From assembly GCA_036803685.1 (NCBI GenBank), contig DAIRTX010000010.1, forward strand, positions 2,074-66,073: a stretch of 64,000 bases of DNA, read 5' to 3'. Position numbers and translations under genes: made by a program. Each line of letters starts with the position of its first letter. Position 1 is the first letter of the stretch. The notes under the pieces were generated by a model. That model worked only from the letters and a program-made list of their open reading frames with translations, was not told where the DNA came from and made no database searches. Source of the stretch: Verrucomicrobiota bacterium (GTDB lineage Bacteria > Verrucomicrobiota > Verrucomicrobiia > Limisphaerales > UBA11358). Positions 5,243-56,664 of this stretch are shown here, piece by piece.

Positions 5243-5357
5243 GGGCATCGCGGTTGGAGTTCAATCCCGCCCTGCGGGATTGCCGCCGGGAACACGCTGA
5301 CCCAGGCTGCGCCGCAGGCTTCGCCGAGGCGAGAGCGTGAACTCCAACGATGGGCGC
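5243..5357. repeat. Inverted-repeat element (about 20-bp arms GGGCATCGCGGTTGGAGTTCA / TGAACTCCAACGATGGGCGC around a ~75-bp GC-rich core)
   Basis: The arms are reverse complements (about 17/19 matches) by direct reading. The element fills the spacer ahead of the sulfatase stop. Confidence 0.7.
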
Positions 5358-5358
5358 G

Positions 5359-6804
5359 TTAATTGGCTTTCAAAAGACGCTCGAACTTTTTGATTACATC
5401 AGGATTTTTACCTGCGACGTTGTTGGTTTCGCCCGGATCAGTTTTGAGATTGTAAAGTTCCAGTGGCGCATCGGCTTTTGAACGCATAACCTTCCAATCT
5501 CCCATGCGAACGGCCTGGGCCTCATCGCGACTTTGGAGCTTCCAATAAAACGACTCATGCCGGTTGGTTTGGATTTGGTTAAACAGCGCCGGCAAAATGG
5601 AAATGCCGTCAATGTTCGTCGGCGATTGGATCAGGGCTATGTCCGTCGCCGTCGGCAAAAAGTCCCACGCCGCGCAGGAAAAATCGCTGACCTGGCCGGC
5701 GGGAATTTTACCGGGCCAATGCGCAATCATTGGCACTCGCAGGCCGCCGTCGTAAAGGTCGCCGCGGATGCCGCGAAACGGCCCGGCGCTTTGGAAAAAT
5801 TTTGGACCAACGCCGCCATTCGTTTGTGGCCCGGTGTCACTGGTGAAAAAAATCACCGTGTTGTTTGTCAGGCCGAGCTTTTGCAATTGTTCGAGCAGTT
5901 GCCCGATGTAGCCGTCGAGCCGCGCAATCATGGCGGCTTTGTTTTTTTCCGGCTGCGGCCACGATTCGCCGGAGAACGGCGCGTCGGTCGGCACTTGCAT
6001 TCCATTGCCGGTGCGCGCCTTTTCGGCGGTGTTCGCACGCAGTGTCGTATAATTCACCAGCAGGAAAAATGGCCGGTAGCGGTTGACCCGGTCAGGTTGA
6101 TTGTTTTTGACGAAGTTTATCGCTGCTGTCGTGAACAGGTCGGGAAGGTATTGGCCTTTTTTTTCGCCGGTGTTCGGATACAGCATTTCCCTGCCGTGAA
6201 AACCGGTCGTGGGATCATGCCGCCAGATGTAGTCGGCGTAATAATTTTCCGCATCGGCGGAATCGAAGTAACCGGCGAATTCATCAAAACCCTTGTTCCA
6301 TGGCGCGCCACTCGTGCCGTCACCACCCAAATCCCATTCGCCAATCAAGCCCGTATGATAGCCGGATTGCTGGAGCACTTGCGCGACGGTGATGTCGTCC
6401 GCCGTCAGCGGCACGTCCACGTCGGCGCGCTGTTTCAAGTGACCCGAATCCTTGCCCAGCATTAACGCCGCGCGTGACGGTGAACTCACCGCGTCGCCCG
6501 CATAGTAACTCGTGAAGCGAATGCCCCCGGCGGCGAGCCGGTCGAGATTCGGCGTCTGCAATTTTGTCTGGCCGTAACAACTCAAATCGCCGTAGCCGAG
6601 GCCGTCGGCGACAATCAGAACGATGTTCGCCCGGCGTGGCATGGGCGGTGGTGTGGCGTTGGTAAAGACAAGTTCGGCGCGGGCACCGGGCGTAAATTCA
6701 AGCACCGCAACGACCAGCAACGCACGGGTGAATATCCGGCCAAAACGATTGAAGCGAATTGATTTCATTGTGAACTTTGATTCTGGAAAGTCCGGCGCGT
6801 TCAA
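5359..6804 (-). CDS. Sulfatase (arylsulfatase A family), Ser-type active-site motif, secreted
   Basis: 481 aa. 'NIVLIVADGLGYGDLSCYGQ...TPNLDRLAAGGIRFTSYYA' followed by 'SSPSRAALMLG' gives the sulfatase signature with Ser in place of the usual Cys. Signal peptide present. An alternative start is M13 at 6768. Confidence 0.9.
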   Translation of the reverse strand: MNAPDFPESKFTMKSIRFNRFGRIFTRALLVVAVLEFTPGARAELVFTNATPPPMPRRANIVLIVADGLGYGDLSCYGQTKLQTPNLDRLAAGGIRFTSYYAGDAVSSPSRAALMLGKDSGHLKQRADVDVPLTADDITVAQVLQQSGYHTGLIGEWDLGGDGTSGAPWNKGFDEFAGYFDSADAENYYADYIWRHDPTTGFHGREMLYPNTGEKKGQYLPDLFTTAAINFVKNNQPDRVNRYRPFFLLVNYTTLRANTAEKARTGNGMQVPTDAPFSGESWPQPEKNKAAMIARLDGYIGQLLEQLQKLGLTNNTVIFFTSDTGPQTNGGVGPKFFQSAGPFRGIRGDLYDGGLRVPMIAHWPGKIPAGQVSDFSCAAWDFLPTATDIALIQSPTNIDGISILPALFNQIQTNRHESFYWKLQSRDEAQAVRMGDWKVMRSKADAPLELYNLKTDPGETNNVAGKNPDVIKKFERLLKAN

Positions 6805-8861
6805 AGCAATTCTTTTCGGCGGCGATTAAATTTATCTTGCCGGACTGTTGGCGGCGGGGGCAGGGATTGGATCGCGGATTCGACCGTCATTTCCTTCAAA
6901 TCCTGTCGTGGATAATCCAATTGATAGAGGCGCAGCCGCATGGGTGATTGATAGCAACGGGTCGAACCCGATGCGGTGACGGCGGAAATGGTCATGACCG
7001 TCACTTCCAAGCCGGTCAGATCACGCTCTCCGTCAACGGCAGCCAGCGAAACGAACGACCGGTTATTTTCGATCAACGGCGACAACAGGAATCCGCTGCG
7101 GGCCATGCCGGGAACCAGGCGGAAGTCCAGTTGCCGGCCATCGCGCAGGGACACTGCCAGCGTCAACATCGGCGGTTTGTAGAGCGTGGAGACTGCGGAA
7201 CCCAAAACGGATTTGTTAATTTCCAATTCAGCCCAGAGCGGGCCGTTGTTGGTGGCGGGCAGCCTGATGGGTTCGCCGAAATGGACCGGCAGGTCGGCGA
7301 ACGGCTGCAGATGAAATTCCCTGGGTGTGGCCGACCGTTTCAAAAGCATAAATATTCCGGCCGTGTCCTTGACGTCGTATCGGGTCAGCAATTCCGGCCA
7401 CGAAAGGCCATCCTCCAAGGAAGGAAAGTTGTTATTTAGCGGATGGATGTCGAACAATATATTGTCCGGTGCATGAGCGCTCCGCAAATGGGCGGCATTC
7501 AACTCCGCCAACTCCGGTGCGTACACGGAATAGCTCTGGATGACCGGCCGCGGATCATACCGCAAGTCGTGCGCAATCAGCACGGCCTGGTTCCAGGGAT
7601 AGACATCCACCCCCCCCTCAATCGGCGGCAGCGGAAATTTCATTCGAACTTCGGCGAGATTGTTCCCATAGATTTTTCGCAAATGGGCCGGATCGCGAAG
7701 CAATTTTGCCGGGGCCAGAATGTTTTTGATGTTCAGCGTCCAGGCAAAATCCACCCATAGCCGTTCTTCCGGCACGTGGGCTTCCCGGTAGCCACGGTTG
7801 AAGGTGGACGAACAAAATAAACCAATGCCACCCAGTGCGAGAAAGTTGGCCGGCCAAACCCACCACCTGTTTTTTTGCCAGACCGGCCAGGTCACCGCCA
7901 GACAGGCCAGGGTGACGAGCAAAAGCTGCAGCGCGCCGATGATTTCATGGGTTTGATCGTACCGTACACAAACGTGTTTGAAGTTGAGGAACAGGATTGC
8001 TCCAAGCCCAATTACAGGAAAGATCCCGAAAAATCGGCGCCGCACCCATGCCGCATAACCCGTTACTGCGATGAGCGTTGCGGTGGCCGCCAGCAGCCAT
8101 CCCATGTCTTCAATTTCTCCCGCGGTCGTCCACATCATCGCTTCGGTGTAACCGTCCGCCAGCACCCACGAATAGCGGAGATACGGCCAAAGCAGCGACA
8201 GGCTTTGTCCGGCGACAATCCAGAAAAACAGAATGCTGGCGGCAAAGAGAGGCACGATCCAGGGAAACCGCCGTCTTCGAAAAACATTGTCCGCGGCAAT
8301 GACGATAACAACGGCGGTCACGCCGATCATGCCGGTGAACTTGGTCAAAGCCAGCATTCCCGATAAAACGACCAGCAAAACCTGCCGGGCGCTGATGGGG
8401 CGGTCCTCCACAAAGAAATACAGAAACAACAGCAACAGGGTCCAGCCAACCATCCGAACGTCAAAATTCTGTTCGACACGCATTCCCGCTATTCCAGCGA
8501 AACCGATGAACCAAAACCAGGCGAAGAGTTTGTTGGTCGAGAAGTGACAAGCCACCCGCCATCCTGCCCACCAAAATGCAAACGCAAGCAGGGTACACAC
8601 CATCACCGCGATGGGAAACGTTGGCGGGTTGTATCCGCCATACAAAAACCCCCAAGGACCGAAGGTAAAGACCAGGTCCCGGCCAAATTGTAAATGGTGT
8701 TCAAAGGCCGCGTGCAAAGCCAGTCCCCATGAACCGTCGGGATCGTTCGGCGGATCTGACACCCAGGGGAAAAACAGTGAAAACAGATAAATGAACGCAC
8801 TCGAGGGAAGCAGCCATTTCCCGGCTTTTAACCAATTGGGGGAGGAAAAATTCAAAGCCAT
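6801..8861 (-). CDS. Large polytopic membrane protein with C-terminal soluble domain, function unknown (possibly GT-C-like)
   Basis: 686 aa. The first ~340 aa carry many hydrophobic helices and the C-terminal ~330 aa are soluble. There is a 4-nt overlap with the sulfatase start and a 3-nt gap to the AmpG-like gene. No family confidently recognised. Confidence 0.75.
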   Translation of the reverse strand: MALNFSSPNWLKAGKWLLPSSAFIYLFSLFFPWVSDPPNDPDGSWGLALHAAFEHHLQFGRDLVFTFGPWGFLYGGYNPPTFPIAVMVCTLLAFAFWWAGWRVACHFSTNKLFAWFWFIGFAGIAGMRVEQNFDVRMVGWTLLLLFLYFFVEDRPISARQVLLVVLSGMLALTKFTGMIGVTAVVIVIAADNVFRRRRFPWIVPLFAASILFFWIVAGQSLSLLWPYLRYSWVLADGYTEAMMWTTAGEIEDMGWLLAATATLIAVTGYAAWVRRRFFGIFPVIGLGAILFLNFKHVCVRYDQTHEIIGALQLLLVTLACLAVTWPVWQKNRWWVWPANFLALGGIGLFCSSTFNRGYREAHVPEERLWVDFAWTLNIKNILAPAKLLRDPAHLRKIYGNNLAEVRMKFPLPPIEGGVDVYPWNQAVLIAHDLRYDPRPVIQSYSVYAPELAELNAAHLRSAHAPDNILFDIHPLNNNFPSLEDGLSWPELLTRYDVKDTAGIFMLLKRSATPREFHLQPFADLPVHFGEPIRLPATNNGPLWAELEINKSVLGSAVSTLYKPPMLTLAVSLRDGRQLDFRLVPGMARSGFLLSPLIENNRSFVSLAAVDGERDLTGLEVTVMTISAVTASGSTRCYQSPMRLRLYQLDYPRQDLKEMTVESAIQSLPPPPTVRQDKFNRRRKELL

Positions 8862-12656: not shown

Positions 12657-12759
12657 GGAGCGCGGCGTTCACGCCGCTTCAACTCACGAATCGGAAGCGA
12701 CGAGACTTTTCCGGCACTGCTCCAGAATGGACGTTGAAGCGGGCTGAAGCCCGCGCTCC
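12657..12759. repeat. Palindromic element: 27-bp arms GGAGCGCGGCGTTCACGCCGCTTCAAC / GTTGAAGCGGGCTGAAGCCCGCGCTCC separated by 49 bp
   Basis: The arms are near-perfect reverse complements, and each arm contains its own mini-hairpin. Read directly. Confidence 0.8.
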
Positions 12760-13482: not shown

Positions 13483-13686
13483 GAGCCGACGGGAGAAGAA
13501 TCAGACTGAATTCCGAAGTCCGAATTCCGAGATCCGAAAGAAATTCGAACGCCGAAATCCGAAGTGACCAAGCTGGCGGCTCAACCTCCGGTTCCCGGAT
13601 TCGACATTCGGGCTTCGGGCTTCTTTCGGATTTCGGGTTTCGAGCTTCGGATTTAAAATCGTGAGCCTCGTTACCCCGGCTGCTAC
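13479..13686. repeat. ~205-bp nested imperfect palindrome (outer arms GTAGGAGCCGACGGG / CCCCGGCTGCTAC; inner arms of TCCGAA/TTCGGA-rich units)
   Basis: It occupies the whole convergent spacer between coaB and the permease gene. The inner arms share ATCCGAAAGAA in reverse-complement orientation. Confidence 0.7.
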
Positions 13687-15522: not shown

Positions 15523-17607
15523 GTGCGGGCGATGTCGCCGCCGGAAACCAAATCTTCCCCGCTCGCCGCACCGGTCACTTCGCTTTGGAGTGTTGGTGCG
15601 GAGCGCGCGGCCCAACTTGCGCGCCTCGACATCCACACCGTCGAGGATTTGTTGTTGCACCGGCCGCGGCGTTACGAGGATCGCCGGCACTTCCGCAAAA
15701 TCGCTGAACTGACGAAGGACGAACCCGCGACGGCGCGCGGCACGATTGTCGCGCTGGGGCTCAGACGTTTTCGCGGCGGCAGCAAATCCGTTTTTGAAAT
15801 CATTCTCGACGACGGCTCAACGCGGCTGCATTGCCGCTGGTGGAACCTGCCGTTCATGCAAAATTATTTTGCCATGGGCGACGAGGTTTTTGTTTACGGC
15901 AAATTGAGCGAAACGAAGCCGCGCGTGATGACTCATCCCGAAACCGAAGTCATCGAAGGCGGCGAGGAAAGTTTCATCCACCTCAACCGCATCGCGCCGG
16001 TGTATCCGCTCACTGAGGGCTTGCCGCAACGCTGGCTGCGCGGGCTGATCTGGCGCACGCTGGGAAAATTTGAAACGCAAATCGCGGAACCGGCTTTAAC
16101 GTGCTGCCGACATCCTGTCGGCAGTTCTGAAATTTCTTCTTCCGGCAAGATGCCGGAAGCACTTTCTCTTCCGACGCGCGCCAATGCGGTTCACCTGACG
16201 CATTTCCCCGAAGAACTGACCGATGTCGAAATTGCGCGCCGGCGGCTGGCGCTGGACGAGTTCATTGAATTGCAGGTTCAAATCCAAACCCGGCGGAAAA
16301 ATTTTGAATCGCACGCAACGGCGTTGCCGTGCGGCGGCAACAATCGCCTCATCAAACCGTTTCTTGCCCGGCTCGGCTTCAAGCTTACCGATGCGCAAAC
16401 GAAAGTGCTGCGCGAAATCCGCAAGGACATGGGCGGCGCGCATCCGATGCGGCGGTTGCTGCAAGGCGATGTCGGTTCGGGCAAAACCGTCGTGGCTGCT
16501 TGTACGGCGCTGATGGCGTTGGAAAGCGGCTTCAACGTCGCGCTCATGGCCCCGACGGAGATTCTGGCCGAACAACATTTTCAGAATTTCAAAAAGTGGT
16601 TTGAGCCGCTGGGGGTGAAGGTGGAATTGCAAACAGGGAATCGGAAAACATCCAACATCCAACATCCAACATCCAACATCGAACGAACGGTCGATCACGC
16701 ATCACGCATCACGCATCACGCATCACTTTTCATTGGCACTCACGCCCTGCTCACGTCCGGTTTTGATTTGCCGAAGCTCGGCCTGGTCATCATTGACGAG
16801 CAGCACAAGTTTGGTGTGGCACAGCGCGAACAGCTTGTGCGCAAAGGTCGTTATCCGCATTTGCTCGTGATGACGGCGACGCCGATTCCGCGCACGCTCG
16901 GCCTCACGCTTTACGGCGACCTCGAGGTGTCGGTGATTGACGAACTGCCCGGTGGCCGCGGCCAAATCAAAACGTTCATCCGCACGGCCGATCCCGCCGG
17001 GGCGGGACCGAAGGTTTGGGAGTTTATCCGCGAAAAACTCGCTGCCGGGCGACAGGCTTATGTGGTTTATCCCCGCGTCGAAGAATCGGGCGGGAAAGGT
17101 TTGAAAGCGGTGACGAAAGAATTTGAAAATTTGAAAACTTTGCTTGTGCCATTTCGCGTCGGATTGCTGCACGGGCGATTAAAGAGCCGCGAAAAAAACG
17201 AGGTGATGACGGAATTTCGTGCTGGCGGGGTGAACGTATTGCTCGCGACTTCGCTCATCGAGGTCGGCGTGGATGTGCCGAACGCCACGGTCATGCTCGT
17301 CGAAAACGCCGAGGCGTTCGGGCTGGCACAACTTCACCAGTTGCGCGGGCGCATCGGACGCGGCGCCCATGAGTCGTATTGCATTTTGGTTTCCGACGCG
17401 GAAACTGCCGGGGCGAATGAACGCCTGAAAGTACTGGAAGAAACGAACGACGGTTTTCGCATCGCAGAGACGGACTTGAAATTGCGCGGGCCGGGCGAGT
17501 TGCTCGGTCAGCAGCAAAGCGGTTTGCCGAAATTCCGTTTCGGCAATCTGGCTGACGATCTCGATTTGATCCAGCAGGCGCGCGAGTTGGCGGCGAAAAT
17601 GGCGTAG
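15523..17607 (+). CDS. recG: ATP-dependent DNA helicase RecG
   Basis: 694 aa. Walker A 'GDVGSGKTVVAA', 'DEQHKFGV', 'TATPIPRTL' and 'QLRGRIGRG'. The N-terminal wedge-domain context is 'LHRPRRYEDR'. Confidence 0.95.
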   Translation: MRAMSPPETKSSPLAAPVTSLWSVGAERAAQLARLDIHTVEDLLLHRPRRYEDRRHFRKIAELTKDEPATARGTIVALGLRRFRGGSKSVFEIILDDGSTRLHCRWWNLPFMQNYFAMGDEVFVYGKLSETKPRVMTHPETEVIEGGEESFIHLNRIAPVYPLTEGLPQRWLRGLIWRTLGKFETQIAEPALTCCRHPVGSSEISSSGKMPEALSLPTRANAVHLTHFPEELTDVEIARRRLALDEFIELQVQIQTRRKNFESHATALPCGGNNRLIKPFLARLGFKLTDAQTKVLREIRKDMGGAHPMRRLLQGDVGSGKTVVAACTALMALESGFNVALMAPTEILAEQHFQNFKKWFEPLGVKVELQTGNRKTSNIQHPTSNIERTVDHASRITHHASLFIGTHALLTSGFDLPKLGLVIIDEQHKFGVAQREQLVRKGRYPHLLVMTATPIPRTLGLTLYGDLEVSVIDELPGGRGQIKTFIRTADPAGAGPKVWEFIREKLAAGRQAYVVYPRVEESGGKGLKAVTKEFENLKTLLVPFRVGLLHGRLKSREKNEVMTEFRAGGVNVLLATSLIEVGVDVPNATVMLVENAEAFGLAQLHQLRGRIGRGAHESYCILVSDAETAGANERLKVLEETNDGFRIAETDLKLRGPGELLGQQQSGLPKFRFGNLADDLDLIQQARELAAKMA
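16104..16159. repeat. Twin-hairpin element inside recG (CTGCCGAC-atcct-GTCGGCAG ... CTTCCGGC-aagat-GCCGGAAG)
   Basis: Two perfect 8-bp stems read directly. It encodes 'CCRHPVGSSEISSSGKMPEA'. The same family occurs at 56137..56185 and 28122..28192. Confidence 0.85.
16648..16726. repeat. Two heptanucleotide tandem arrays inside recG: (ACATCCA)x~4.7 and (GCATCAC)x~4.8
   Basis: Read directly. Together they encode 'TSNIQHPTSNIERTVDHASRITHHAS', immediately N-terminal to 'IGTHAL'. Confidence 0.9.
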
Positions 17608-24127: not shown

Positions 24128-24342
24128 AATCGCGCCAGTTGCTTGCAGTGGGGGCATCCGCTGCGATGTCAGGAGTTGCGACAACCCCAGCGGGCTTGCC
24201 GCGCCGACTCGTCGCGCCGAAGCAAAACGAAGGCGGAAGCGCGGAGCGCGCAGGCGGGGAGCCGTTGGCACGAGCGAAAAAATCTGACGCTCGTGCCAAC
24301 GGCTTTCCGCCGCGCCTTTTTGCTTTGTGGGGAAATTGAATT

Positions 24343-25778: not shown

Positions 25779-26705
25779 TTAATTACGCCGTGCAATTAAA
25801 AATCTTTCGCGCTGACTGTAATCCTCCCTCACCGCTTCGACAATCCACTTTTCGGTCTCAAAAATTTTCCGGATGGCGTCGGCCTGGCCGTCGCCGAATT
25901 CCAGCATGATCTTTCCGCCCGGTTTCAGGAACGGTTTCGATTCCATTGCCAGCTTCCGGTAAAAATCCAGGCCGTCCGCGCCGCCGTCCAGCGCCGCGCG
26001 CGGATCAAAGTCGCGCACTTCCGGCTGGAGCGTGGCGATTTCGGCGGACGGAATGTAAGGCGGGTTGCTGATGATAAGGTCGAATTCCATTTTTCGGAGG
26101 GAGCTCCGCGAGCTCCATTCTTCTTTGGGGGAGTCAGGGCGTCGCGGCGCTCCGCCCTCCGATTCATTCTGCAGTGCGGCAAAACCGTTGCTTTGCAGAA
26201 ATTCAACCCGTTCGGCGGCGTTATGTCGTCCGGCGTTTTGTTTGGCCAACGCCAGTGCGTCCGGCGAAACATCCGTCGCCACGACTTTTGCGGACGGACA
26301 TTTTACCGCGAGCGCGATGGCGATGCAGCCAGTGCCGGTGCCGAAATCGAGGGCGGTTGAGGGTTGAGAGTTGAGGGTTGAGAGAAACTGCCACCCGAGT
26401 TCGGCGAGAATTTCAGTTTCCGGACGCGGGATCAGAACATGGCGGTTGACGGCGATTTCCAGTCCGCAAAACGAAGTTGAGCCGGTGATGTGCTGGAGCG
26501 GTTCGCGCTGGCCACGGCGCTTGATGAATTCGCGAAGGCCGTCCGTTTCCGCCGGGGTGAGTGCGCGCTCGAAGTTCAGATACAATTTCATGCGCGGCAG
26601 CTTGAGCAGATGTGCGAGCAGGAGTTCGGTTTGCAGGCGCGGCGACTCGACGCCTTTTTTGGCGAGAAATTCCGTGCTCTTCTGAATCGCCTCAAGAACC
26701 GTCAT
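25779..26705 (-). CDS. prmC: Peptide chain release factor N5-glutamine methyltransferase
   Basis: Start at MTVLEAI (the track ORF extends to 26765). 'DFGTGTGCIAIALA' is the SAM motif and 'IISNPPYIP' the catalytic NPPY. It carries two repeat-derived insertions. Confidence 0.9.
   Translation of the reverse strand: MTVLEAIQKSTEFLAKKGVESPRLQTELLLAHLLKLPRMKLYLNFERALTPAETDGLREFIKRRGQREPLQHITGSTSFCGLEIAVNRHVLIPRPETEILAELGWQFLSTLNSQPSTALDFGTGTGCIAIALAVKCPSAKVVATDVSPDALALAKQNAGRHNAAERVEFLQSNGFAALQNESEGGAPRRPDSPKEEWSSRSSLRKMEFDLIISNPPYIPSAEIATLQPEVRDFDPRAALDGGADGLDFYRKLAMESKPFLKPGGKIMLEFGDGQADAIRKIFETEKWIVEAVREDYSQRERFLIARRN
26094..26162. repeat. 69-bp three-way palindromic element inside prmC
   Basis: Outer stem TCGGAGGG/CCCTCCGA encloses GGAGCTC-cgc-GAGCTCC and GGGCG...CGCCC hairpins. 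It is exactly 23 codons, codon-aligned, and encodes 'SEGGAPRRPDSPKEEWSSRSSLR'. Confidence 0.85.
26355..26384. repeat. Heptanucleotide array (GGTTGAG/AGTTGAG)x4 inside prmC
   Basis: Read directly. It encodes 'LSTLNSQPST', immediately N-terminal to the SAM-binding 'LDFGTGTG'. Confidence 0.9.
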
Positions 26706-28121: not shown

Positions 28122-28192
28122 ACCTGGGAGCGCTGGCGTCCCGCCGGCGTGTGACAGTGAAGCTGGCCGGCGAGACGCCGGCGCTCTCAGGG
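28122..28192. repeat. Three-way palindromic element (outer stem CTGGGAGCGC/GCGCTCTCAG; inner GCTGGCG-tcc-CGCCGGC and GCCGGCG-aga-CGCCGGC)
   Basis: Read directly. The inner hairpin core CCGGCGAGACGCCGG is identical to the reverse complement of the truA-tail hairpin. Confidence 0.75.
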
Positions 28193-38839: not shown

Positions 38840-42520
<3,681 letters not shown>

Positions 42521-53084: not shown

Positions 53085-53148
53085 CGTAGCCGCCGACGTC
53101 AGTCGGCGCACACTTTTCAAATGGCGCGGACTGACGTCCGCGGCTACG
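53085..53148. repeat. GTAGCCGCC...GCGGCTAC family palindromic element (intergenic copy)
   Basis: GCGTAGCCGCCGACGTCAGTCGGCGC-acacttttcaaat-GGCGCGGACTGACGTCCGCGGCTACG. It forms a long near-perfect hairpin. Confidence 0.88.
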
Positions 53149-53748: not shown

Positions 53749-53760
53749 ACGTGGAGTTTT

Positions 53761-53819
53761 AACGCAAAGACGCAAGGTCGCAAAGATTCATTTACTCTGC
53801 GCCTTTGCGCCTTTGCGTT
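53761..53819. repeat. Hairpin element AACGCAAAGACGCAAGGTCGCAAAG ... CTGCGCCTTTGCGCCTTTGCGTT between thyA and folA
   Basis: The arms are reverse complements by direct reading. A related CAAAG/CTTCG-type element lies at about 43800..43870. Confidence 0.75.
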
Positions 53820-53829
53820 GGAATTCTTC

Positions 53830-55312: not shown

Positions 55313-55380
55313 AATTTTGAAATGAAAGCGAGCCAGATTGTTTCGTCAAACTTTGTTCCTTTGTTGCTTTGTTGTTAAAA

Positions 55381-56193
55381 ATGCAGCCCCTCAAATTCAA
55401 ACTGACCATTGCCTACGACGGCACGGGCTATGAAGGCTGGCAGGTGCAAAAAACCGGCACGGGCGTGCAGGAAAAAGTTGAAACGGCGCTGGCAAAGTTG
55501 TTTCCGAGCAAGCCGCGCCTCCACAGCGCCAGCCGCACGGATACCGGCGTTCATGCGCTCGGCATGGTCGCGCATTTTGAAATTCCCGGCGCCGAAGCCA
55601 AAATGTCCGTGCGCCAACTCACGTTGGCGCTCAATGCCTGGCTCCCGGAAGACATTCGTGTGCTTTCCGCTTCACGCGCGCCGAAAGAATTTCACGCGCG
55701 CTTCGACGCGGCGGGCAAACAATATCGCTATTTCGTCTGGAATCATCCGGCCATGAATCCGCTGATTCGCCATACCGCGTGGCATGTGACGCGCCCGCTC
55801 AACTTGAAGGCCATGCGCACCGCCGCGCCGCTGTTTGTCGGACGGCGTGATTTCAAATCGTTCGCCGCCAGCCGAAATTACGAGATGAAATCAACCGTGC
55901 GCCGGCTCACCCGCTGTGACATCAAAAAGTCCGGCCCGCAACTGACGTTTATCATCGAAGGTGACGGTTTTCTTTACAAAATGTGCCGCGGCATCGTGGG
56001 GACGCTGGTGCAGATCGGTCTGGGCAAATTTCCGGCGGATGAAATCCGGCGGATGCTGGCGAAAAAGGACCGGCGCGTGGCCGGCATGACCGCACCGGCG
56101 CAGGGGCTGGTGTTGTGGAAGGTATTTTATAACGTGCTTCCGGCGTCTCGCCGGAAGAACAAATCTGCCGGCAGGATGCCGGCAGCACGTTGA
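55381..56193 (+). CDS. truA: tRNA pseudouridine(38-40) synthase TruA
   Basis: Start at MQPLKFKLTIAYDGTGYEGWQ. It has the 'RTDTGVHA' catalytic Asp motif. The last ~18 codons and the stop lie within a twin-hairpin repeat. Confidence 0.93.
   Translation: MQPLKFKLTIAYDGTGYEGWQVQKTGTGVQEKVETALAKLFPSKPRLHSASRTDTGVHALGMVAHFEIPGAEAKMSVRQLTLALNAWLPEDIRVLSASRAPKEFHARFDAAGKQYRYFVWNHPAMNPLIRHTAWHVTRPLNLKAMRTAAPLFVGRRDFKSFAASRNYEMKSTVRRLTRCDIKKSGPQLTFIIEGDGFLYKMCRGIVGTLVQIGLGKFPADEIRRMLAKKDRRVAGMTAPAQGLVLWKVFYNVLPASRRKNKSAGRMPAAR
56137..56185. repeat. Twin-hairpin element forming the truA 3' end (CTTCCGGCG-tct-CGCCGGAAG ... CTGCCGGC-aggat-GCCGGCAG)
   Basis: Two perfect stems of 9 and 8 bp. It is the inverted counterpart of the recG element at 16104..16159. 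Confidence 0.88.
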
Positions 56194-56196
56194 GCC

Positions 56197-56664
56197 ATGA
56201 ACATTGTTCTGGTTGAACCGGAAATTCCGCCGAACACGGGCAACGTGGCCCGCCTTTGCGCAGCCACAACAACGACGTTGCACCTCATCGAGCCGTTCGG
56301 TTTCAAACTCGATGACGCGCAACTCAAGCGCGCGGGCATGGATTACTGGCAGCGCGTCGAGTGGCATCGGTGGCCGAACTGGAAGGCGTTTGAAGAAAAA
56401 CTGCCGGCGAACGCGCGGCTGTGGTTTGTTGAGTCCGGCGGGCCGAAGATTTACAGCGACGTGAAATTTTCAGCGGATGATTATCTGGTTTTTGGACGCG
56501 AGACCGCCGGTTTGCCGAAGCAGTTGCTGGAACAAAACCGTGACCGGTGGCTGCGGATTCCGATGTTCAATGAAAAATCGCGCTCGCTGAATCTGTCGAA
56601 CTGTGCGGCGCTGGTTTTATTTGAGGCATTGCGCCAGCAGGGTTTCAAAGGCGAAATCCGTTAA
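56197..56664 (+). CDS. trmL: tRNA (cytidine/uridine34-2'-O)-methyltransferase TrmL (SpoU/TrmH family)
   Basis: 155 aa. 'IVLVEPEIPPNTGNVARLCAAT' and 'LVFGRETAGLP...IPM...RSLNLSNCAALVLFEALRQ'. Confidence 0.92.
   Translation: MNIVLVEPEIPPNTGNVARLCAATTTTLHLIEPFGFKLDDAQLKRAGMDYWQRVEWHRWPNWKAFEEKLPANARLWFVESGGPKIYSDVKFSADDYLVFGRETAGLPKQLLEQNRDRWLRIPMFNEKSRSLNLSNCAALVLFEALRQQGFKGEIR

Follow-up and report, generated by a model that had tools for sequence, protein, structure and literature searches.

A twin hairpin that lies in frame within recG on a stretch of verrucomicrobial DNA (64,000 nucleotides of contig DAIRTX010000010.1, assembly GCA_036803685.1; hereafter the window) is very probably a resident, translated copy of a family of non-autonomous mobile elements. 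These elements are inverted doublets of repetitive extragenic palindromic (REP) units of the type linked to REP-associated tyrosine transposases (RAYTs) and are similar to REPINs (REP doublets forming hairpins). The family carries a GTGCT tag and is a previously undescribed REP/REPIN family, although the kind of element is already known. A preliminary description of this DNA had implied a structure specific to recG; instead, the recG copy belongs to a dispersed REP-doublet family that adjoins a RAYT transposase in one genome.

The GTGCT family and the covariation of its stem

Direct reading of the window sequence and its translation confirmed the letters and the in-frame position of both hairpins in recG, CTGCCGACATCCTGTCGGCAG at 16104-16124 and CTTCCGGCAAGATGCCGGAAG at 16139-16159. 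Hairpin 2 is an inverted copy of hairpin 1, and together they read LTCCRHPVGSSEISSSGKMPEA. The complete unit has the architecture AAC-GTGCT-hairpin1-spacer-hairpin2-AGCAC-(G/T)TT, i.e. AACGTGCT...AGCAC(G/T)TT, and the recG copy encloses the private spacer TTCTGAAATTTCTTC (Table 1). The insert, from which the peptide LTCCRHPVGSSEISSSGK is predicted, corresponds to approximately aa 192-214 in the linker between the wedge and helicase domains of RecG. An AlphaFold model, which was too poor to rely on with a mean predicted local distance difference test (pLDDT) score of 44.7, contained only coil at residues 184-215. In window shuffles 0.00-0.01 matches to the recG hairpin patterns were expected, ruling out chance palindromes as the origin of the hairpins in recG and truA. 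Folding of the recG copy was more stable than that of shuffled sequences both as RNA (z = -6.2) and as DNA (z = -7.9). A scan of the 64-kb window with Rfam 15 returned two tRNAs only, and no curated RNA family reached its gathering score for the recG element.

A copy at the 3' end of truA had also been described. It is present, but its extent is larger than stated and it lies inside the truA ORF, of which it encodes the last 19 codons (residues 256-274), and it ends on the T of the TGA stop codon (56191-56193). The reverse complement of 56137-56185 reads CTGCCGGCATCCTGCCGGCAG...CTTCCGGCGAGACGCCGGAAG. In both copies the stems are 9 bp and the loops 3 nt long, and once per hairpin truA has G:C where recG has A:T, arm 1 of recG being an A:T variant at stem pair 7. 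Both differences are thus paired, as had been noted. They do not, however, extend the stem of hairpin 2, since the pair exists in both copies, as A:T or as G:C. In the truA copy (z = -8.7 versus shuffles) the two arms preferentially pair with each other to form a single long hairpin; the recG copy favours the twin hairpins because its two arms differ at 3 pairs. The hairpin of the truA doublet (window 56128-56200, -43.6 kcal/mol) ends 5 nt upstream of the ATG of a trmL-like gene (SpoU-family methylase) at 56197, and it could occlude the ribosome-binding region of this next gene or serve as a processing or stabilising site.

To define the family, one genome per GTDB species was scanned with the pattern GTGCTKCCGNCNTCYNGNCGGMAG, which fits arm 1 as well as arm 2 and is unconstrained at four positions of the stem or the loop closure. 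At least 113 genome stretches matched, so that the element is not limited to the three loci previously listed. About 100 of these were found in metagenome-assembled genomes (MAGs) of Verrucomicrobiota, several MAGs having at least 8 loci, and the remaining matches were single arms in unrelated phyla, near chance expectation. RecG homologues place the window itself in the Verrucomicrobiota (Limisphaerales-like MAGs). The arm is a 24-nt REP-like unit consisting of the 5' GTGCT tag followed by a palindrome with a 9-bp stem and a 3-nt loop. At least 177 exact arms fall into subfamilies set apart by paired changes. When up to 3 mismatches were allowed, at least 87 inverted doublets (174 arms) were obtained compared to 65 single arms. 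The arms of a doublet are inverted and arranged tail-to-tail, with a spacer of 3 to ~170 nt and the flanks cAAC/GTGC...GCAC/GTTg. As expected for REPINs, the elements are inverted REP pairs able to pair as a hairpin, they are dispersed in multiple copies and doublets exceed singlets; the two window copies, in contrast to an extragenic position, lie inside ORFs. In place of GTAG, at least 177 exact arms have (AAC)GTGCT as their head. Features of the CGTC superfamily were not found either, as the tag is CGTG, the stem starts with C:G followed by T:A, the loop has 3 nt and a CCA tail is missing. Lacking both the GTAG and the CGTC tag, the family was filed as a new one among the known kinds of REP/REPIN. 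A complete doublet of this verrucomicrobial family was also present on a 1.8-kb contig (CAZNOE010001184.1, locus L179) of a MAG labelled Bifidobacteriaceae, which is probably mis-binned.

For analysis of covariation, arms were collected by their Hamming distance to the consensus (at most 6 of 24) and opposite-strand duplicates were removed, which yielded 244 arms, 83 of them distinct, from about 100 loci. This collection penalises compensated double changes more than single ones, therefore the estimate of covariation is conservative. Among the 83 distinct arms, which are related by descent, 91.7% of the cells were paired compared to 83.8 ± 0.6% after shuffling, 9 of 9 stem pairs were changed on both sides (shuffled: 4.9 ± 1.2) and 60 cells were changed on both sides (shuffled: 13.3 ± 3.0); none of 500 shuffles reached the observed values. 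Sliding the partner by 1-3 columns abolished the signal. In all copies taken together, 150 compensated double changes stood against 85 one-sided ones. Stem pairing is maintained across the family, and in this respect the previous conclusion that base pairing is kept between copies holds. The A:T and G:C variants are each a multi-copy subfamily, so that the difference between recG and truA alone is uninformative about selection at recG; it reflects family history. Mismatches of the G.T and A.C type occurred at a ratio of 20:9 in the orientation of the arm itself (p ~0.06) and of 4:4 in the mRNA sense. This excess and the opposite orientation of the recG and truA copies weakly favour folding of each arm as DNA over an mRNA structure.

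Table 1. Positions of the REP doublets and their host genes in the window
Feature	Position	Strand	Details
recG ORF, host of the element	15523..17607	+	694 aa; wedge domain aa 23-180; helicase domain 1 from ~aa 286
Whole REP doublet in recG	16098..16165	+	AAC + arm 1 + 14-nt spacer + arm 2 + TTT
Arm 1 of recG doublet	16101..16124	+	GTGCT tag + hairpin 1 (16104-16124; 9-bp stem, loop TCC)
Arm 2 of recG doublet	16139..16162	-	hairpin 2 (16139-16159) + AGCAC tag; minus strand GTGCTTCCGGCATCTTGCCGGAAG
truA ORF	55369..56193	+	homology to solved TruA structures and Pfam domain stops at aa 254-255
Second doublet, same family, reversed orientation	56131..56191	-	arms at 56134-56157 and 56165-56188
Intergenic doublet, other REP family	28123..28191		arms GAGCGCYGGCGTCYCGCCGGC at 28128-28148 (+) and 28166-28186 (-)

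Transposase and host genes

A transposase gene next to copies of the family was detected by tblastn seeding in the MAG that is richest in copies (MFD05684.bin.2.284). The ORF at 6317-7171 of locus L181 encodes a Y1 transposase with scores of 33.5 bits for Pfam Y1_Tnp (cut-off 23) and 75.5 bits (E 3.8e-21) for the NCBIfam model REP_Tyr_transpos (REP-associated tyrosine transposase). Three tandem doublets (5961-6329) lie upstream of this RAYT gene, and an arm and a doublet (7068-7215) lie downstream. This 'REPtron' arrangement, a RAYT flanked by the same REPs, was seen in this MAG only; a second RAYT, in locus L084, was flanked by its own, different REP. Judging from ORF translations, the L181 RAYT and its flanking doublets (5288-8000 of CAWBHS010000110.1) appear to be inserted in a priA-like gene, as a PriA-like N-terminal ORF runs into the upstream doublets and terminates there, and past the downstream doublet the translation continues in a frame resembling a helicase.

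We propose that doublets are copied to new sites by a cognate RAYT, which would recognise the tag and the hairpin on single-stranded DNA. Only copy lineages with a foldable stem would keep multiplying, giving subfamilies with alternative complementary pairs, and these would appear as the observed covariation. Terminal inverted repeats, a variable interior and a non-autonomous size would also be expected of a conventional miniature inverted-repeat transposable element (MITE), i.e. an insertion-sequence derivative with an internal deletion that is moved by a DDE transposase binding to the terminal inverted repeats and in which hairpins are incidental. Such an origin is highly improbable, as no target-site duplication was evident at the flanks, each end is a palindrome with covarying internal pairs, which inverted repeats of the DDE type do not need, and the sole transposase found adjoining arms belongs to the Y1/RAYT type.

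Insertion into genes turned out to be frequent. Thirty of the 69 doublets of up to 120 nt lie in a frame that is free of stop codons over at least 80 codons to either side, and 17 of 18 host ORFs tested by Pfam were real genes. The confirmed hosts comprise FtsK, glycogen debranching enzyme (GDE), MetH, ValRS, class II ribonucleotide reductase, PheT, GcvP, HypF, a class II aminoacyl-tRNA synthetase, two aminotransferases, TsaD, an esterase, DnaG, IleRS, DUF885 and aconitase. Including three recG copies, at least 21 of the 69 short doublets (30%) are intragenic and in frame. One PheT ORF (L113, 3025-5724) was hit twice, with in-frame doublets of the family at aa 328 and, separately, at aa 664. 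The consensus arm is free of stop codons in all six frames, and short doublets had on average 4.5 of 6 frames open compared to 2.6 in shuffles. All three arm frames are used by the hosts, giving RAAGVPPAD, NVLPASCRQ or TCCRHPVG, hence the peptide is not what is conserved and a functional peptide was ruled out. Several insertions are located inside catalytic domains and not only between domains, which weakens the idea that the elements serve in pausing at domain boundaries.

For both RecG and TruA the doublet is an in-frame, stop-free insert lacking in orthologues and is predicted to be translated. The recG copy would have landed in the length-variable wedge-helicase linker and, being stop-free and frame-keeping, would be tolerated and simply translated as ~22 additional residues. 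In truA, the insert may have taken the place of the last few codons of the original gene, giving the protein a tail of 19 residues. The GTGCT family adds a REP/REPIN family to a phylum known almost only from metagenomes, in which small hairpin transposons routinely lengthen essential proteins; this matters for gene calling and for protein-length comparison in the MAGs of this phylum. The family further shows how protein linkers gain sequence.

Occupancy and conservation of the recG linker

An alignment of RecG orthologues around the linker, as had been suggested, revealed an empty site in distant recG genes (...AEPKPAPDLKLFPTRANA or ...EPWPALPLQHFPTRANA) and inserts in close relatives. Of the 120 closest RecG proteins (78-100% identity), 119 have this site occupied. 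At least 7-8 unrelated palindromic families are represented among the inserts; several are headed by GTAG (insert families C, D and E), and some also occur elsewhere in the fetched loci. An insert of the GTGCT family (type A) was present at recG only in the window, L027, L123 and L194-L198. REPs nest and cluster in L084 and L002 and in the double inserts of P0039 and P0043. One decayed copy was found at the recG site, in L065. The codons flanking the insert form two strongly diverged haplotypes, EPAL-insert-LSLPT and EPWPSL-insert-RCFLS, which do not follow the gene tree and thereby point to recombination around the site. The type-C insert of L007 is a mismatched hybrid hairpin with the 5' arm GGCAG, as in L016 and L028, and the 3' arm CTCAC, as in L003 and L006, and looks like a recombinant between two insert alleles.

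Several observations weigh against the recG insert being a resident copy of a RAYT-type REP doublet. The link to a RAYT consists of one locus in one MAG, the NCBIfam score of this protein lies just under the curated cut-off of 80, its nearest database relatives are only ~55% identical, and tblastn of the 64-kb window with this RAYT and an E. coli RAYT seed as queries detected no RAYT. The intragenic share of at least 30% is far above that of classical REPINs. Moreover, a selfish-element model leaves it unexplained that nearly every RecG of at least 78% identity has some hairpin at the linker and that the 64-nt recG element including its locus-specific spacer is identical at 61-64 of 64 positions across orthologues in which fourfold sites differ by 14-40%. 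Outside the element, the divergence of fourfold sites from the window amounted to 13.8% (L197), 20.0% (L198), 37.6% (L195) and 39.9% (L194), whereas inside the element 0/12, 0/12, 0/11 and 0/11 fourfold sites were changed, respectively. At the rate of L195 the 64 nt should differ at about 24 positions; one difference was observed. This conservation is due either to host-level nucleotide constraint or to recent spread among alleles.

An alternative explanation is that the host keeps the recG-linker hairpin for a role in cis, e.g. in mRNA stability, translation pausing or as a DNA structure affecting expression, with REPs as raw material. The 95-100% identity of the element, the near-complete occupancy by so many families and the finding that two diverged flank haplotypes carry the same 64 nt would all agree with this. 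So would compensated changes that arose in situ: L027 has G:C where the other recG copies have A:T, with the same spacer, and four stem pairs of the type-C insert show such changes. Nevertheless, a host-kept hairpin is improbable. Many distant recG genes have an empty site, the copy in L065 has decayed, and the same family resides in about 20 unrelated genes, often within catalytic domains. In GDE and MetH, the orthologous copies have diverged at almost the rate of their flanks (80% versus 75% conserved in GDE, 83% versus 72.5% in MetH). The opposite orientation of the recG and truA copies, the lack of a G.U bias in the mRNA sense and the lack of an Rfam match further argue against it. We consider it equally doubtful that at the recG linker, and perhaps at other sites in replication and repair genes, the host selects the stable hairpin itself while REP families swap, so that selection at the DNA or RNA level and not at the protein level would hold the type-A copy, private spacer included, nearly invariant at all its nucleotides and would make it a domesticated intragenic REPIN. 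A neutral account is plausible, in which a permissive loop would have gained a hairpin early and later attracted more while parts of the older ones were lost.

Compensated changes at orthologous loci, where transposition cannot act as a filter, were found at the recG site and also in the GDE copy (L158/L166). They could also arise if pairing were kept mechanically, i.e. if a mutation were copied from one half of the palindrome to the other by intrastrand template switching or by mismatch correction in an extruded hairpin, mimicking compensation. Template switching is well established as a mutational process that corrects quasipalindromes, and the predominance of perfect palindromes is in line with it. 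It is nonetheless very unlikely to be the explanation here. An unbiased process would change pairs at approximately the mutation rate, but the window and L195, with fourfold sites diverged by 38%, differ at 0 of 18 stem pairs, and the conserved tags, the loops, the spacer and the association with a RAYT would be left unexplained. Resident copies of a mobile REP doublet thus remain the preferred reading, and the remaining interest lies in the multi-family hot spot at recG and the extreme conservation in situ. Combining many families, near-complete occupancy, changes compensated in situ and a copy whose conservation far exceeds that of synonymous sites, the recG site provides a natural experiment on the question whether resident REPINs are kept by the host or merely tolerated.

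Other repeats of the window and comparison with known systems

The intergenic element at 28123-28191 had been regarded as a related third copy. The inner core CCGGCG-AGA-CGCCGG is indeed common to both, but membership in the recG/truA family was rejected, as the arms, with the tag GGAGCGC, define a separate dispersed REP family. Relatives of this doublet are present in L002, L033 and L097, and its arm is closer to the GTAG-headed E2 family (GTAGCGCAGGCGTCCCGCCTGC) than to the recG family. At 348-395 of L084 an arm of the GGAGCGC type lies 3 nt from a GTGCT-family arm, a mosaic of REP types resembling bacterial interspersed mosaic elements (BIMEs).

A second variable region of RecG (aa 374-400) was considered as a further hairpin and rejected; it consists of two heptamer tandem arrays and showed no fold in the window (z +0.55). 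These in-frame arrays, AACATCC x5.4 at 16647-16684 and ATCACGC x4.7 at 16694-16726 (aa ~375-402), read TSNIQHPTSNIE...HASRITHHAS, and RecG orthologues have different heptamer-derived peptides at this site; a slip by one unit would shift the frame. Heptamer repeats of the types GAAATCC, GGTTGAG/CTCAACC and TCAACTC occur elsewhere in the window at 13509-13654, 26355-26384, 39151-39180, 39709-39738, 40246-40289 and 40535-40564, some of them as long inverted repeats, e.g. with 55-nt arms at 13509-13563 and 13600-13654. Long hairpins of other families were observed at 12657-12759, 24253-24311, 39935-39989, 53085-53148 and 53754-53826, with GGAGCGCGGCG.../...CGCGCTCC and GTTGGAGTTCAAGCTT.../...AAGCTTGAACTCCAAC as examples, the latter type also lying within a REP doublet of L002 (10398-10504), where it is nested.

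In BIMEs, the REP mosaics of enterobacteria, different REP types form clusters, lie within each other and take each other's place at a given locus when related strains are compared; L084, L002 and the double inserts of P0039 and P0043 show a similar picture. BIMEs are intergenic and bind IHF and gyrase. Rickettsia palindromic elements (RPEs; cited in PMC3733652) share with the GTGCT family that they are palindromes inserted in frame into essential genes and translated as extra surface peptides. They differ in phylum and in sequence, and RPE-1 of Ogata et al. is reportedly longer, at ~100-150 nt. RPEs of the CGTC type are not known to have a dedicated transposase, whereas the GTGCT family adjoins a RAYT.

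REPINs are inverted REP doublets that form hairpins, are associated with RAYT transposases and are located in extragenic space (Bertels & Rainey 2011, PMC3116915). Like the GTGCT family, they consist of an inverted palindromic REP pair with a less conserved spacer that folds into a hairpin in single-stranded DNA or RNA, their doublets exceed singlets, compensatory changes are a common and described property, and the RAYT is flanked by the same repeats (PMC3116915). Differences concern the tag, which is GTAG in REPINs and GTGCT here, the spacer of 3 to ~170 nt, the link to a RAYT at one locus and the position, as at least 30% of the sampled short doublets are in coding sequence and not extragenic (PMC3116915).

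The closest parallel is provided by the GTAG/CGTC REPs of Di Nocera, De Gregorio & Rocco (2013, PMC3733652). Monomers and dimers of these REPs lie in frame in known genes, and dimers encode 20-30 residues. Many of the host genes act in replication or repair or code for aminoacyl-tRNA synthetases or for tRNA pseudouridine synthase A/B. The verrucomicrobium Opitutus terrae has the highest intragenic GTAG count, and different REPs are described near the same recB site in two Xanthomonas species. In the text consulted recG is not among the hosts named, and at least 7-8 families at one site together with strong conservation in situ are not described; the GTGCT family also differs in being without a GTAG or CGTC tag. 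In the nomenclature used there, the GTGCT doublet is a tail-to-tail dimer with a variable spacer. With the intragenic GTAG/CGTC REPs of that account it shares the in-frame insertion into genes and the alternative complementary stem residues that are described among REP subfamilies (PMC3733652).

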